A stretch of DNA of 64,000 nt from the NCBI RefSeq assembly GCF_003334765.1, contig NZ_QOWT01000008.1; one strand, 5' to 3'. Shown in pieces: positions 22,024-50,205 of this stretch. Numbering within the stretch: position 1 is the stretch's first letter; every line of letters starts with the position of its first letter. Under the pieces are notes generated by a model that saw only the letters and a list, made by a program, of their open reading frames with translations, made no database searches and had not been told where the DNA came from. The translations under genes were made by a program, and so were the position numbers. This DNA comes from Escherichia coli (lineage in GTDB: Bacteria; Pseudomonadota; Gammaproteobacteria; Enterobacterales; Enterobacteriaceae).

Positions 22024-24036
22024 TTACAACACCTCGCGAACCGAGATCCCCAGCCGCTGCATTCGTGACAGCAGCGTGGTGCGCTTCATCCCTAATCGCG
22101 TCGCTGCGCCACGGGGCCCGGCAACAATGCCATTGGTTTCTCGCAATACCTGAACAATGCGCTGACGTTCTTCTTCGTCATTCTCTGGCGTCGTCGGGTG
22201 CAGTAACTGCGCCATTGAACTGCGAAGCGCTGAATCTTCATTTAGCGTCGGCAGTAAACGGCTTTGTCGGACATTTAGATGTAAATTCAGACTGTTACCA
22301 CGAGTCAACAGTACCGCCCGCTCAATCACGTTTTCCAGCTCGCGCACGTTGCCCGGCCAATCCCACGACATCAACTGGCGTAGTGCCTCGGTCGGGATGG
22401 CGTCAATTGCGCGATTCATATGGCGCGCCATTTTTTGCGTGAAATGTTTTGCTAAAAGAGGGATATCTTCCGGACGGTCGCGTAGCGGCGGCAATTCCAG
22501 TGGGAAGACATTCAGGCGATAAAAGAGATCGCTGCGAAACTGGCGATCTTCAACCATTTGCCACAAATCACGGTTGGTGGCGGCAATGACTCTGACATTC
22601 ACCGGGATCGTTCTACTCCCGCCGAGACGCTCAATCTCCCGCTCCTGCAATACGCGCAGCAGTTTAGGCTGAAGTTCTAACGGCAGATCGCCAATTTCAT
22701 CGAGAAACAACGTGCCGCCATCGGCAATTTCAAAACGACCACGATGGGTATTAATCGCACCAGTAAACGCCCCTTTGTCATGACCGAATAACTCACTTTC
22801 CAGAAGACTGGCGGGGATGGCAGCGCAGTTGATTTTGACCAGCGGCTTGTCGCGTCGCGGGCTAAGTTGATGGATCGCTCTGGCGATCACCTCTTTGCCA
22901 GTTCCGGTTTCACCACAAATCAACACCGTACTGTCGCTCTTCGCCACAATATCTACCTGCTGGAGCAGGTCTTCCATTGCCTGGCTTTGATAGATAATGT
23001 CACCGATGCCCAGATTCGAAAGGAGCTGCTCGCTAAGCTGGTGGTTTTCTTGCTGCAAACTTTCCTGCAAATCGGTCATGCTACGCCAGGCATCGGCATT
23101 GCCAACGGCAATAGCGATGCGATCGGCTATGTGTTGTAGTAGCTGGCAGTTTTCCTCACTAAAGAGAGTGGAAGAGGTATGCGCCAGCAACAATGCACCC
23201 GGTGTATGGTTGCCAAAGGTAAGCGGTATAAGGAGCGCAGATTCGCAGCCGTTAGATGCAAGTAAGAGTAATAACGGGTCGCGTTGCCAGAGAAACAGAT
23301 CATCTGCACGGTGCGTCAAGGTCGGTTGTCGGGTTTGTAGCGTTTGTGTCAGCAATACACTTTCGCCAGGCATACAGCGTGGCAGACACGCACAATGTGA
23401 GGCAGAAAGATCGCTGCACCACAGGCTGAACTTCTCGTTCTTTCGATGATCGCCCAGTACCATACTGACTGAAGCCAGACCGAAAAAATGATGGATCTCA
23501 CGAGCGACGTCAGCGATCAGATCGTCGAGATCAAGATGTGACAGCACTGCATTAGTAATATCAACCAGTACCCGATGATGATCGCGATCTTTCTCCAGCA
23601 AACGCAGCGCCACCTGCTGTTCTTCATCATTGAGCCATGATTGCAGAACCGGGGTGATTATCCGCGCCAGCCAGTTAAACAGTGTGCAATCCTGGGAAGT
23701 AAAACGACTGCCGTGGGTGCGAATAAAGCGTAGCTCCGCCATTCCACTACTGCCGAGAAGGACGGCGTGACGCGAATAATCGACCATCTCGCCCTGATAC
23801 TCTGTTGTTGCCGTCACATCGCTGCCATCATCATGGTAGCGGTAATAGAAGTTGCTTTTGAGAACATGCAGTTCAATAAGTTGTACCGGGCTGAACGGCG
23901 GCGGCAGCGGGATGAAGGCGCGTAATAAAGACGCCTTGCCGTGTTTCTGTGCTAACCGCTCCGCGAGCATTCCGTTTACCGCTTCAATTGTTATTCCTTG
24001 TGGCGGGGCAAACATCGCCTCGTCTGACATAGCCAT
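22024..24036 (-). CDS. hyfR: Sigma54-dependent transcriptional activator HyfR (GAF, AAA+, HTH)
   Basis: ORF track 22024..24039; GESGTGKE and GAFTGA sigma54-interaction motifs; start set to the second Met for 670 aa. Confidence 0.9.
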
Positions 24037-24065
24037 CAACAGTCCTTATTAATGAGAAATCCTTC

Positions 24066-32099: not shown

Positions 32100-34118
32100 T
32101 TAGACGGCAATAGCGATTAGCAGCACAACCAGTGCGGCGACCACATACAGGCAATAGAGACGAAAGTCGCCGCTTTGCAGATGCTGTATTTCTTTGGCCA
32201 GCCGTTGGGTGGCGCTCACGATGGGGCGGATCACCCGCTCATCCCAGAAGGGTTCTGTGCTCTGAGCCCTGGCGGTGACGTGCGCAAGACCTTTATTTAG
32301 CCTCAGCGTAGGGTCGAGCTGTTGTCGTAGACGAAATAGCGCAGAAAAGACCACACGCAGCGGCTGCATCACGCCATTGCCTGACGGGGCCATCGCATTT
32401 TCCCAGCCGTAGCCGCATGCCCAGGCATCTCCTGTGCGACGAAACGCTGCGCGGCGCGAACGACACCACAGCCAGTAAAGGCCAGGCAGCAAAGGCATCG
32501 CCAGTAGTAACAGCAACAGTAATGAGGGGGTGACCTGTGTATGAAACGTGCCGGGTACAAGTGCTATTCCGCTGGCGACAGTGGCGGGAGGGGTATTGGT
32601 AAACGCATGGGCAATATGCATTATCTTCGGTGCCAGCCAACTGGCACTAAGCGCAATTAATACGCAGAGTGCCGCGAGCAGTAGCATGGCGACGATCATC
32701 GTATTTGGCACTTCCTGTGCCTCTTCAGCGTGTGTACTGCGCGGCGCACCACAGAAAGTAATACCGTACATTTTTACGAAGCACATTACTGCCAGCCCAC
32801 CAGTGACTGCCAGCATTACCATAGCAATAGGACCCGCAAGTTGTAGCGCTACGGCTTCCACACGACTTAGTGAGAACAGCGACTGCCAGGTGTACCATTC
32901 GCTGATAAAACCATTCAGCGGAGGAATGGCTGATATCGCGAGGCAACCAATCAGGCATGCTGCGGCTGTCCACGGCATCCGTTTCGCTAGTGCCCCCATT
33001 TTTTCCATGTCGTGGGTATGCAAACGCGAAATAATCGCTCCCGCGCCGAGAAATAGCAGCCCTTTGAACAGCGCATGGTTGAGCAGATGAAACAGTGCGC
33101 CGAGCAGTCCAACCACGGTGAGCAGCGGGTCGTGCAGTGACAGACCGACCATCGCCACACCGACTGCCAGCAAAATAATGCCGACGTTTTCGACGGTACT
33201 CCAGGCCAGCAGCCGTTTGATATCCTGTTCCGCCAGCGCATATAGCACGCCCAGGAGCGCGGAGATTGCGCCGATCGCCATCACCAGAATGCCCCACCAC
33301 AGAGGCAAACCCGTTTGCGCCAGCAGATCCATCGCTACTTTCAGGATGCCGAAAATACCTATTTTGACCATTACGCCAGACATCAACGCCGAAGCGTGCG
33401 ATGGTGCGGCAGGGTGAGCGCGCGGCAACCAGCTGTGCAACGGCATCATCCCGGCTTTCGCGCCAAAACCGAAAAAGGCCAGCAGGAACACCGCCGACGC
33501 CAGCCCCGGAGAAAGTGAAAGCGTGCGGAAACTGGCAAAATCGAGGCTGCCGCTTTCGCGCCCCATCAGCAAGAAGGCGATCATTATCAGCACCGATCCG
33601 GCGTGGGCGATAAAAAAGTAGAGCATGCCAGCGTTGATCGACGTTTTATCCTGCCTGGCAATGACCAGAAACCAGGAAGACAGCGACATCATTTCAAACA
33701 GCACGATGAACCAAAAAGCGTTGTCCATCACCAGCAGGGCAACCATCGATGCGATGAAAATATTCATAAAGAAGCCCATCGCCGCCGCGCCTTTGCCCTC
33801 GTATTCGCGCATATAAGTCAATGAATAGAGAGAACAAACCACCACCAGCAAGGAGATAACCAGCACCATAAATGCCGAGAGGCTATCCATTCGCAGGGTT
33901 AAATCGGCAAATTCAAAAGGGGTGGCAAAACGGGCGACTAAAGTTACACCAGCATGTAATTGCGTAATTCCGCTGATGATGCCAATCACGCCGCCCACCA
34001 GCGATGTGATGCCGGAAAGCTTAATAGCCAGTCTGTCCAGACCGAGTAAAAACAGCGAAGCCAGACTAGCAAACAGATAGAGAATCAGCGACCAGGTTAA
34101 TAATTGCAGGGCATCCAT
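32100..34118 (-). CDS. hyfB: Hydrogenase-4 membrane subunit B (NuoL-like antiporter-like)
   Basis: 672-aa polytopic membrane ORF; start overlaps the hyfA stop. Confidence 0.9.
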   Translation of the reverse strand: MDALQLLTWSLILYLFASLASLFLLGLDRLAIKLSGITSLVGGVIGIISGITQLHAGVTLVARFATPFEFADLTLRMDSLSAFMVLVISLLVVVCSLYSLTYMREYEGKGAAAMGFFMNIFIASMVALLVMDNAFWFIVLFEMMSLSSWFLVIARQDKTSINAGMLYFFIAHAGSVLIMIAFLLMGRESGSLDFASFRTLSLSPGLASAVFLLAFFGFGAKAGMMPLHSWLPRAHPAAPSHASALMSGVMVKIGIFGILKVAMDLLAQTGLPLWWGILVMAIGAISALLGVLYALAEQDIKRLLAWSTVENVGIILLAVGVAMVGLSLHDPLLTVVGLLGALFHLLNHALFKGLLFLGAGAIISRLHTHDMEKMGALAKRMPWTAAACLIGCLAISAIPPLNGFISEWYTWQSLFSLSRVEAVALQLAGPIAMVMLAVTGGLAVMCFVKMYGITFCGAPRSTHAEEAQEVPNTMIVAMLLLAALCVLIALSASWLAPKIMHIAHAFTNTPPATVASGIALVPGTFHTQVTPSLLLLLLLAMPLLPGLYWLWCRSRRAAFRRTGDAWACGYGWENAMAPSGNGVMQPLRVVFSALFRLRQQLDPTLRLNKGLAHVTARAQSTEPFWDERVIRPIVSATQRLAKEIQHLQSGDFRLYCLYVVAALVVLLIAIAV

Positions 34119-34735
34119 TAGCGTTGCTCCTGAGTGAGGGAAAGGGGATCCTCCCCGCCATTGGCAAACCAGCTTGCGGCAAGGCGCTGTTTTTCTTTCA
34201 TCTGACGTTGCAGGCTATCACCGGTGATCAGCCGTAACGCCTGATTCGGGCAAGCGCGAACGCAGGCCGGACCTTCTGGCAAGAAATCACACAGGTCGCA
34301 TTTCACCGCGACGGTCTGGACACCAGGTTCCCAGCGCAGCAAAGCATGTTGTGTTGGCGCGTTTTCTTCGCCGTCTTTGAGTGAGCCTTCAGCCTGAAAA
34401 ACATATTGCGCATGGGCATTCACCGGACGGCTTCCTGAAGCGCTGATTGCGCCAAATGGGCAGACCACGGCGCAAAGCTTGCAGCCAATACAGAGGCTTT
34501 CGTTGAGTTGGATCGCATCATCCCTCTGAGAGATGGCATTGACCGGGCAGACCTGCAGGCAAGGGGCTTCCTCACAGTGATGACACACGACAGGGGCAGT
34601 GATTGTTGACGTCTTCGCCAGGGCCAGGCGCGGGTGTTGCTGTAAACCTTGCGTTTTATGCACGTCCGAACAGGCAGCGAGACAGGTATTACATCCTGTA
34701 CACCACAGTGGTTCGGCCACCACAAAGCGGTTCAT
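34118..34735 (-). CDS. hyfA: Hydrogenase-4 4Fe-4S ferredoxin subunit A
   Basis: ORF track 34118..34774; start reset to MNRFVVAEPLWCTGCNTC (205 aa) with AAGGAG 5 nt upstream; four Cys clusters. Confidence 0.9.
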   Translation of the reverse strand: MNRFVVAEPLWCTGCNTCLAACSDVHKTQGLQQHPRLALAKTSTITAPVVCHHCEEAPCLQVCPVNAISQRDDAIQLNESLCIGCKLCAVVCPFGAISASGSRPVNAHAQYVFQAEGSLKDGEENAPTQHALLRWEPGVQTVAVKCDLCDFLPEGPACVRACPNQALRLITGDSLQRQMKEKQRLAASWFANGGEDPLSLTQEQR

Positions 34736-34776
34736 GTCGGCTCCTTGAAAATGATATGAAACATTGCATTTCATAT

Positions 34777-34792
34777 TGCATAAAGGATGCCA
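34777..34792 (-). promoter_or_regulatory. Sigma54 (-24/-12) promoter of the hyf operon
   Basis: Minus strand reads TGGCATCCTTTATGCA against consensus TGGCACG-N4-TTGCA; GG and GC correctly spaced; about 45 nt upstream of the hyfA ATG; fits a HyfR-activated operon. Confidence 0.65.
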
Positions 34793-34917
34793 TTCTGATT
34801 AACTCAATATATTCAATAAGTTATGTATTAACTGGATTCTGAACGGTACAAAAATGATGGTCATTAACGTTCAGCAAAAAATGGATTCGACACCCGTGTC
34901 GCAGGGGAAAGCGAGAA

Positions 34918-34933
34918 TGTGATCTTGATCACG
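34918..34933. promoter_or_regulatory. CRP-like palindrome TGTGATCTTGATCACG
   Basis: Close match to TGTGA-N6-TCACA, about 150 bp upstream of the sigma54 element, between the bcp 3' end and hyfA. Confidence 0.45.
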
Positions 34934-34987
34934 AGAAGTGAGGTATGCTGGCCGCAAGCGCAGCCAGCACGGAATGGAGCAAAGTAA

Positions 34988-48504: not shown

Positions 48505-50205
48505 TTACATTAACTGACTTTCCTCACCCTCCGCAGAGCGAAAGCTAATACTCACTAACGTGCCGCCGCCGGAAGGTTGTGAAAAAGTCAGCGTCCCACC
48601 TAGCCGTTCCGCGCGTTCGCGCATGATATTCAGACCATAATGACCTTCGGGTTCTTTCGGTTCACCGATACCAATCCCGTTATCACGGATATAAACCGTG
48701 TGATTGCCGTCCGGCGCGGTGACGCAACTGACGGCGATTTCGCTGGCGTTGGCGTGCTTCATCGCATTCAGCACCGCTTCGCGAATAATTTGCAACAAAT
48801 GCACCTGCATTTGCGCATCCAGTGCCAGGGTTGGCAGACGGCAGTCGAGGGTCAGTTTGGCGCTGGTTTGATTTTGTAACGTATCCAGCATTTCCCTCAA
48901 TGCGGAGGGGAGATCCGCCTGCTGCAGCGTCAGGCGGAAAGTAGTCAACAGCTCGCGTAACTGCCGATAAGCATCATTCAACGCCTGGGAAAAATCGGCC
49001 ATGATACTTTGTGCGGTGGCGTTATCTTCCGGTATCGAACGCTTCAGTAACGTCAACTGGATACGTAAGTAAGAAAGTACCTGAGCCAGCGAGTCGTGCA
49101 ATTCGCGGGCGATGGTCGCACGTTCTTCCATCAACAATAATTGCTGAAAATGCTTCTGCGCCTGATTAAAGTACAAACCGCGTCCCAGCATCGACGAAAC
49201 GCTGTTAAGCAGCGGTTCTGATGATGAAACGTGACTATTTTGCCAGTGCAGTTCGCCGTAAACCGTCTCTTGCATTGTCACCGGTAAAATCTGCATCGGC
49301 AATTCCGGGTTTGGTTGCCCTTCGCTAATCCGCCAGTTTTCACCGACATTTAACTCCAGATATTCAGCCGCTTCATTGTCGCGAACAATCTGCAAAATAT
49401 GGCGGAAACAATGCACATCAATCTGGCTAGTGTTCAGCGCCTGCGAACACTGATACAACACCTCCAGACGACGCTTGGCCTCGTGGAGATCGCGGGTCTT
49501 TTCTTCTACTGACGCTTCCAGCGAACGGTACAATTTATGCAGCTCGCTCGACATCTGGTTAAAGGTTTTTGCAAGCAGACCAAGCTCATTCGGCAGGTTG
49601 GTATCCAGCGGCGGCGAGTCGAACTGCCCGTGTTCAATACGCTGACTGGCGGTAACCAGCTGATTCAGCGGGGCAACCACCTGATGGCGTATGCGGCGCA
49701 AAGTAAAAAAGACCAGCGTGAAAATACCGATGCCGCCAGCCAGGGAAATCGCCACCACCAGCAGCATTTTGCGTTCAGCGTAGTGCTGTAAAGCCAGTAC
49801 GAACAGGTCTATCTGATTAACATAATTATTAATATTGGCCTGATACCACGGCAAATCGCCCTTGCTGAGCCGATTATTCATCTCCAGCCAGTTGGCATTC
49901 AGATGCGCATAGCGAGTTTTTACTGCTTCTGGCACATACCAGACGTTGAGGTTGGTTAATACCGGTGAATGCAGTGCCTGCTGAAATAACTGGCGATGTG
50001 CATTGAGTTGTGGACTGCCACTTTGCAAGTCGTAGCCCAGGCGGTAACTCTGCATACGCAGCGATCCGGCAATATTGATAGCCTCAGCGTCGCGCAAACT
50101 GCTCGCCAGAGTTAGCAGAGCGATACCCGTGGAAAGAATCGACAGCAGCACAATGTAAAAAAAGGCCCGGGCCAGACTGGCCGAGACGGGTCGTTTAACA
50201 ATCAC
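48505..50205 (-). CDS. narQ: Nitrate/nitrite sensor histidine kinase NarQ
   Basis: ORF track 48505..50220; 566-aa form starts at GTG (V)IVKRPVSASLARAFFYIVLL; HAMP plus HisKA_3 plus HATPase domains. Confidence 0.88.
   Translation of the reverse strand: MIVKRPVSASLARAFFYIVLLSILSTGIALLTLASSLRDAEAINIAGSLRMQSYRLGYDLQSGSPQLNAHRQLFQQALHSPVLTNLNVWYVPEAVKTRYAHLNANWLEMNNRLSKGDLPWYQANINNYVNQIDLFVLALQHYAERKMLLVVAISLAGGIGIFTLVFFTLRRIRHQVVAPLNQLVTASQRIEHGQFDSPPLDTNLPNELGLLAKTFNQMSSELHKLYRSLEASVEEKTRDLHEAKRRLEVLYQCSQALNTSQIDVHCFRHILQIVRDNEAAEYLELNVGENWRISEGQPNPELPMQILPVTMQETVYGELHWQNSHVSSSEPLLNSVSSMLGRGLYFNQAQKHFQQLLLMEERATIARELHDSLAQVLSYLRIQLTLLKRSIPEDNATAQSIMADFSQALNDAYRQLRELLTTFRLTLQQADLPSALREMLDTLQNQTSAKLTLDCRLPTLALDAQMQVHLLQIIREAVLNAMKHANASEIAVSCVTAPDGNHTVYIRDNGIGIGEPKEPEGHYGLNIMRERAERLGGTLTFSQPSGGGTLVSISFRSAEGEESQLM

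Follow-up and report, generated by a model that had tools for sequence, protein, structure and literature searches.

A sigma-54 −24/−12 promoter element upstream of hyfA and the start codon of hyfA in Escherichia coli

The hyf locus

The window, by which we mean the whole 64,000-nt stretch of DNA that was analysed, comes from an E. coli K-12-type chromosome, and its minus strand carries bcp and the hydrogenase 4 cluster hyfABCDEFGHIJR-focB. The 601 bases around the promoter site described below match K-12-type E. coli chromosomes at 100% identity, and the genes there are annotated as bcp and hyfA. Relative to MG1655 coordinates, the window runs in reverse complement, such that a window position w corresponds to U00096.2 position 2599173 + (34785 − w). 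The first gene of the cluster, hyfA, encodes a 4Fe-4S ferredoxin-type subunit of hydrogenase 4 and occupies 34118–34735 on the minus strand by RefSeq coordinates (618 nt; 205 aa plus stop). The same cluster contains hyfR (22024–24039, minus strand; 671 aa by mechanical ORF bounds), which encodes a sigma-54-dependent enhancer-binding activator. The HyfR ORF has strong matches to activators of the NifA/NorR/NtrC type and carries the sigma-54-interaction module common to NifA, NorR and NtrC. Against the FhlA equivalog model its score is 642 bits, under the cut-off of 830 bits, so HyfR is a paralogue of FhlA rather than FhlA itself.

The hyf cluster is not present in all strains. The whole of hyfA-focB is missing from 1128 of 5426 complete E. 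coli genomes (21%). In genomes that lack it, for example E. coli AH21F008, yfgO (perM) and bepA come immediately after bcp, with the break point near window position 34934–34939. All of the hyf-carrying complete E. coli genomes (4298/4298) keep the promoter region at ≥90% identity, and only 4 genomes fall in the 90–95% identity band. One sequence variant affects the promoter itself: E. coli Res13-Lact-PEB14-36 has a 14-bp tandem duplication inside the promoter (aligned to 34777–34793), TGGCATCCTTTATGCAACATCCTTTATGCA. The first copy keeps GG-N10-GC, meaning that the promoter is shifted 14 bp farther from the hyfA ATG. Another variant concerns hyfB, which is intact in the window (672-aa ORF, 32100–34118) but is a frameshifted pseudogene in the C600 record NZ_CM181231.1; the frameshift reflects either misassembly or a lesion of that particular strain.

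A −24/−12 element upstream of hyfA

Read on the minus strand, the region upstream of hyfA contains aatcagaaTGGCATCCTTTATGCAatATGaaatgcaatgtttcatatcattttcAAGGAGccgacATGaaccgc, or over a longer stretch aatcagaaTGGCATCCTTTATGCAatATGaaatgcaatgtttcatatcattttcAAGGAGccgacATGaaccgctttgtggtg. Within it lies the 16-mer TGGCATCCTTTATGCA at 34792–34777, with GG at its positions 2–3 and GC at its positions 14–15 (GG-N10-GC). The sigma-54 (RpoN) −24/−12 element of the hyf operon, aTGGCATCCTTTATGCA, spans 34777–34793 on the minus strand, with GG at 34791–34790 and GC at 34779–34778. The placement of GG and GC, including their spacing, matches the sigma-54 consensus TGGCAC-N5-TTGCW exactly; outside GG and GC, the site differs from the consensus in two places, reading TGGCAT instead of TGGCAC and ATGCA instead of TTGCA. 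The original prediction of a minus-strand sigma-54 motif with correctly spaced GG and GC thus describes what is present at this position. The same prediction had put the motif inside an upstream extension of the hyfA ORF that begins at an ATG at 34774, and here it was imprecise: the motif ends 3 nt 5′ of that ATG, and it is the predicted transcription start (34766) that lies inside the extension instead.

How much weight can be placed on the motif itself? The degenerate pattern TGGCAYNNNNNWTGCW matches once in the 64-kb window versus 0.55 matches expected, and at least one match occurs in 47 of 100 shuffles. A consensus search allowing three mismatches was uninformative, returning 115 matches versus 136 expected. 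A position-specific scoring matrix (PSSM) was built from 133 sigma-54 ChIP-seq motifs (Bonocora 2015, PMC4591121), with the hyfA site and one other site in the window left out. The hyfA site is the top PSSM match among ~128,000 window positions and, with 14.9 bits, scores above 61% of the training sites. By the same PSSM, however, 78% of random sequences of this length (64 kb) hold a site as good or better, and the average number is 1.5. Hence, the motif match, taken by sequence alone, is within chance expectation for 64 kb. The estimated chance that a site of this quality falls ≤100 nt ahead of one particular start codon, and on the right strand, is far smaller, ~0.001 (1.5 × 100/128,000). 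It is the position, orientation and conservation of the site, together with published binding data, that establish its reality, and not the motif match alone.

Two other sigma-54-like sequences in the window have high scores. The third-best PSSM match, ACGGTACAATTTATGCA at 49525–49541 (plus strand), is site IA19 in narQ, an intragenic antisense sigma-54 ChIP-seq site with a motif centre at 2584425 and a fold-above-threshold (FAT) value of 3 (PMC4591121). A second sequence, ATGGCGCAGTTACTGCA at 22199–22215 (minus strand), matches the hyfA site in score (14.84 bits). It is found within the 3′-terminal part of hyfR, in the sense direction, with the focB ATG (22002) ~200 nt downstream, and does not appear in the tables of the same study that were searched (Tables 1 and 2 and supplements; PMC4591121). 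With ~1.5 such matches expected per window, ATGGCGCAGTTACTGCA may be a chance match, or it may bear on focB having its own promoter.

Sigma-54 binding and the transcription start

By primer extension, transcription reportedly begins 30 bp ahead of hyfA, with −24/−12 boxes suitably placed, and hyf expression is reported to depend on FhlA and to be induced ~1000-fold by plasmid-borne HyfR. Genome-scale methods provide evidence for sigma-54 binding. In a ChIP-seq study of sigma-54, site OS23 consists of the 17-mer motif ATGGCATCCTTTATGCA, centred at 2599173 on the plus strand, with b2481 (hyfA) as the downstream gene (Bonocora 2015, Table 1, PMC4591121). The ChIP-seq peak centre is at 2599175, 2 bp from the motif centre, with a FAT of 16 and a PSSM score in that study of 10.5; the site carries the EcoCyc flag “C”, which denotes an experimentally confirmed promoter according to the table footnote (PMC4591121). 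The transcription start predicted for OS23 is 19 bp downstream of the motif centre and 31 nt from the hyfA start (PMC4591121). The OS23 17-mer is identical to the element in the window, and maps to 34793–34777. The predicted +1, mapped from the published table, falls at 34765–34766 on the minus strand (34766 by the motif centre), which puts it 12 nt beyond the C in the −12 GC and leaves 31 nt to the hyfA ATG. In an independent genomic SELEX study, the bcp>hyfA spacer had a signal of 92% with sigma-54 holoenzyme alone and of 100% with NtrC, where it was the highest peak and the reference (Shimada 2021, PMC8743547). Occupancy of the hyfA element by sigma-54 holoenzyme has therefore been observed both by ChIP-seq (PMC4591121) and by genomic SELEX (PMC8743547), and the title of Skibinski 2002 implies that E. 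coli hyf is rpoN dependent. The element that had been predicted upstream of hyfA is genuine: it is identical to the OS23 site, it coincides with a genomic SELEX peak, and it is conserved in two other genera (see below). It is also not new, being the already catalogued sigma-54 promoter PhyfA of EcoCyc.

The bcp-hyfA spacer was scanned for other features. A promoter scan of the spacer found no sigma-70-like promoter, and an Rfam scan of the spacer (E ≤ 1) found no RNA family. The leader includes a 10-codon mini-ORF, MFHIIFKEPT, at 34732–34764 on the minus strand, which starts 2 nt after the predicted +1 and whose TGA overlaps the hyfA ATG (ACATGA). This mini-ORF is not conserved in Citrobacter or Klebsiella indica, and we regard it as probably fortuitous.

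Conservation across relatives

A pattern of the N-terminal coding sequence only, and hence blind to the promoter, was scanned against one genome per species and returned six loci. These include hyfA orthologues in Citrobacter amalonaticus and K. indica, which encode proteins of 204 and 205 aa, respectively, both starting MNRFVVADP. E. coli itself is absent from the species scan; its species representative probably lacks hyf, as do the cluster-less genomes described above. Matches in an Arthrobacter and in a Verrucomicrobia metagenome-assembled genome were rejected as chance matches in unrelated ORFs. Two alphaproteobacterial HyfA-like genes were also returned, and these have no sigma-54 motif upstream (best PSSM scores, 3.1 and 0.6). 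Control by sigma-54 is thus a trait of the enterobacterial operons and is not universal for the protein family.

In both C. amalonaticus and K. indica, the best PSSM match in the 300 nt upstream begins exactly 58 nt before the ATG, as it does in E. coli. The motifs at −58 are ATGGCATCCTTTGTGCA in C. amalonaticus and ATGGCATTGTTTGTGCA in K. indica, and nothing else upstream scores above zero. The 17-mer is identical to that of E. coli at 16/17 positions in C. amalonaticus and 14/17 in K. indica, and the Shine-Dalgarno sequence plus spacer at 15/16 and 13/16 positions, respectively. The 25 nt that separate the motif from the Shine-Dalgarno sequence, and that contain the upstream ATG, are identical at only 11/25 and 12/25 positions. 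GG and GC are invariant in C. amalonaticus, K. indica and four E. coli alleles (92.8–100% identity). Published scores for motifs upstream of hyfA extend the pattern to Yokenella (12.1), Pectobacterium (11.4), Dickeya (11.7), Brenneria (12.0) and Proteus (12.6) (Bonocora 2015, Table S5, PMC4591121).

The hyfA start codon

Where does HyfA begin? The frame of hyfA is open from an ATG at 34772–34774 (minus strand), which is the source of a mechanically called 218-aa ORF; a second ATG follows in the same frame 13 codons later, at 34735. Several lines of evidence identify 34735 as the start and show that the upstream ATG is not a real start codon. First, counted from the predicted +1, the upstream ATG occupies −8 to −6, past the −12 element but before the RNA begins, and would therefore be missing from a transcript made from the sigma-54 promoter. 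Second, a Shine-Dalgarno sequence, AAGGAG (34741–34746, minus strand), lies at an optimal distance, 5 nt (CCGAC), before the ATG at 34735, and the surrounding AAGGAGCCGACATG is invariant in E. coli, C. amalonaticus and K. indica. There is no purine-rich Shine-Dalgarno sequence before the ATG at 34774. Third, C. amalonaticus has GCA and K. indica ACA in place of the upstream ATG, and in K. indica the frame is also interrupted by a TAA at −12. Fourth, residues 1–183 of HycB (FHL-1 structure, 7z0s chain B) align to residues 14–199 of the extended ORF (E = 3e-58), such that HycB has no counterpart to the 13 extra residues of the 218-aa ORF. Similarly, position 1 of the NCBIfam models of the paralogues AegA, HydN and YgfT aligns to residue 1 of the 205-aa HyfA. 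The 205-aa protein has the N-terminus MNRFV(V/I)A(D/E) right before the first CxxCxxCxxxC, with no leader peptide.

Existing annotation is in agreement. RefSeq places the hyfA start at the 34735 ATG in 4/4 E. coli records inspected, and the 205-aa sequence is that of Swiss-Prot HYFA_ECOLI and is found on at least 1000 contigs. Thus, the originally predicted start at 34735, with AAGGAG 5 nt upstream, is borne out by promoter position, Shine-Dalgarno sequence, conservation, HycB alignment and RefSeq, and it is the start already accepted in RefSeq and Swiss-Prot. An over-extended 218-aa HyfA (e.g., EFK12572.1 and EGI12116.1) occurs on 36 contigs, in GenBank/IMG records from a few older submissions. 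Calling an ORF from the first ATG after a stop codon over-extends hyfA by 13 codons, and this error persists in a few public records.

Candidate regulator sites upstream of the promoter

The region between bcp and the −24/−12 element contains several conserved blocks that may be regulator sites. Closest to the promoter is an IHF-like sequence, TAACTTATTGAAT (YAANNNNTTGAWT), at 34811–34823 (minus strand). It lies between the putative enhancer blocks and the promoter, and its pattern is found in all three genera. Farther upstream is a 24-bp block, GAACGTTAATGACCATCATTTTTG, at 34849–34872 (−106 to −83; minus strand), a candidate second activator site. This is the best conserved upstream block: E. 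coli, C. amalonaticus and K. indica agree at 23/24 positions (GAACGTTAATGACCATCAYTTTTG), with diverging flanks, making it more strictly conserved across the three genera than either the FhlA-like inverted repeat or the −24/−12 element. The inverted repeat, CGACACGGGTGTCGAA, at 34886–34901 (−135 to −120; minus strand), is a candidate enhancer (upstream activating sequence) for FhlA or HyfR on the basis of its conservation in three genera. Its CGACA-N4-5-TGYCGAA is the part conserved in all three, and scores 5.6–8.4 bits against the published FhlA position weight matrix (PWM; PMC7658346). The inverted repeat was also flagged as a weak terminator-like hairpin (34901–34888). A palindrome with the pattern TGTGA-N6-TCACA, cGTGATCAAGATCACAt, is located at 34917–34933 (−167 to −151; minus strand). 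This palindrome is CRP-like; it is also found in Citrobacter, the aligned sequence of C. amalonaticus being a perfect TGTGATCGCAATCACA.

The identities suggested for these blocks, namely FhlA/HyfR, IHF and CRP, are putative. In E. coli, the top match to the FhlA PWM (PMC7658346) is the CRP-like palindrome (9.6 bits) and not the conserved blocks, and 102 window positions score ≥8. Assignment of the enhancer therefore stays provisional, because the FhlA PWM fails to single out the conserved blocks. That the CRP-like palindrome is the best match to the FhlA matrix shows the likeness of the two consensus sequences. The 24-bp block GAACGTTAATGACCATCATTTTTG could conceivably be a specific site of HyfR, or of an unassigned regulator, rather than of FhlA, although we consider this unlikely. 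If true, a HyfR-specific 24-bp block could explain the near-silence of hyf under FhlA alone.

A model for hyf transcription and alternative explanations

The element is almost certainly PhyfA, the sigma-54-dependent promoter of the hydrogenase-4 operon hyfABCDEFGHIJR-focB, with a 205-aa HyfA translated from 34735. A closed complex formed by sigma-54 RNA polymerase cannot isomerise and open the DNA without an AAA+ enhancer-binding protein. Accordant with this general scheme, sigma-54 RNA polymerase would bind TGGCATCCTTTATGCA through its GG (−24) and GC (−12), forming a closed complex that is stable, and this complex would be opened via ATP hydrolysis by an AAA+ activator. That activator would be either FhlA or HyfR, the FhlA paralogue whose gene stands at the end of the cluster. 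The activator would bind the conserved blocks ~85–135 bp upstream, with DNA bending probably occurring at the IHF-like site. Transcription is predicted to start ~12 nt after GC, at roughly window position 34766, the exact +1 being taken from the literature. The resulting 31-nt leader would bring AAGGAG to 5 nt before the ATG at 34735. The ATG at 34774, between the −12 element and +1, would be absent from the mRNA, and HyfA would be a 205-aa protein starting MNRFVVAEP. Published or computed data support the binding of sigma-54, the geometry of the motif, its conservation and the N-terminus of the protein, and the enhancer and IHF sites enter the model as candidates.

Two alternatives to this model concern the promoter and the protein product, and both are very improbable. 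The sigma-54-like match could be due to chance, with hyfA transcribed from another promoter, either of the sigma-70 type or by read-through from bcp. Chance alone is expected to produce 0.55 exact-pattern matches and ~1.5 PSSM matches of equal score per 64 kb, and the equal-scoring motif at 22199–22215 is indeed outside the published ChIP-seq tables. The hyfA site, however, is bound by sigma-54 in vivo (PMC4591121) and in vitro (PMC8743547), and EcoCyc lists the promoter as confirmed. Moreover, in three genera the motif stands out as a conserved stretch that keeps a constant distance to the ATG, it has high scores in five more genera, and the scan of the spacer revealed no sigma-70-like promoter. 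There is just as little to recommend a 218-aa HyfA that starts at 34774 with the extension MKCNVSYHFQGAD, be it the exclusive form or a minor isoform made from read-through transcripts. The frame is open from 34774, and some annotation pipelines have deposited the 218-aa form (36 contigs). Some read-through past the two hairpins 3′ of bcp (34969–34946 and 34901–34888, the second a weak terminator-like candidate) may also occur. Nevertheless, the upstream codon has no Shine-Dalgarno sequence and sits at −8 to −6 of the promoter, it is GCA or ACA in other genera, and an in-frame TAA is present at −12 in K. indica. Residue 1 of HycB corresponds to residue 14 of the extended ORF, the AegA, HydN and YgfT models start with the 205-aa form, and the 205-aa form has a Swiss-Prot entry and occurs on at least 1000 contigs.

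A third alternative has a small but appreciable chance of being correct: the site may be real but poised, with a non-productive closed complex on a decaying or silent K-12 operon, in which case it would say little about HyfA production. The literature describes hyf as a “silent operon” with “poor native expression levels”, and most sigma-54 complexes are inactive in standard conditions (Bonocora 2015, PMC4591121). Given that hyf is silent or poorly expressed in K-12, sigma-54 occupancy is not equal to activity. The absence of the cluster from 1128/5426 complete E. coli genomes and the frameshifted hyfB in the C600 record are also consistent with decay. On the other hand, the promoter, the Shine-Dalgarno sequence and the activator-site blocks are conserved across genera, which argues for selection for function, and the promoter region is retained at ≥90% identity in every hyf-carrying E. 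coli genome (4298/4298). The orthologous promoter of Proteus mirabilis is active, in an rpoN- and fhlA-dependent manner (PMC7658346). Importantly for the present analysis, a poised complex would leave the conclusions about the promoter and the start codon unchanged.

What does this analysis add? The promoter, the sigma factor, the activators and the 205-aa HyfA were already established for E. coli K-12, so there is no biological addition. The analysis does indicate that a sigma-54 promoter and the correct start codon can be recovered by a careful reading of sequence alone.

Comparison with known systems

The closest known system is E. coli K-12 PhyfA (EcoCyc; OS23, b2481), which has the same sequence, ATGGCATCCTTTATGCA, on the same strand of the same bcp-hyfA spacer and at the same 31-nt distance from hyfA. 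There is no difference between the two; they are the same object. Among other E. coli promoters, those of hycA, hypA, fdhF and hydN, which are activated by FhlA, are like the hyfA promoter in their −24/−12 architecture, in their occupancy by sigma-54 in ChIP-seq, and in having a short leader of 20–41 nt (PMC4591121). The ChIP signal at hyfA is weaker, with a FAT of 16 compared with 91 for hycA and 201 for hypA (PMC4591121). Sigma-54 promoters of the formate regulon rely on upstream activator sites of the TGWC-N6-GWCA type (PMC7658346), and the blocks upstream of hyfA fit the FhlA matrix moderately. A further difference from the other formate-regulon promoters is that an FhlA paralogue, HyfR, is encoded within the hyf cluster itself. 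Outside E. coli, the hyf promoter of P. mirabilis differs in being from another genus and another genomic context, and is compared here by its published description. It resembles the E. coli promoter in having an RpoN motif and two predicted FhlA sites upstream of hyfA (PMC7658346), and the activity of a P. mirabilis hyf reporter is reduced in both rpoN and fhlA mutants (PMC7658346).
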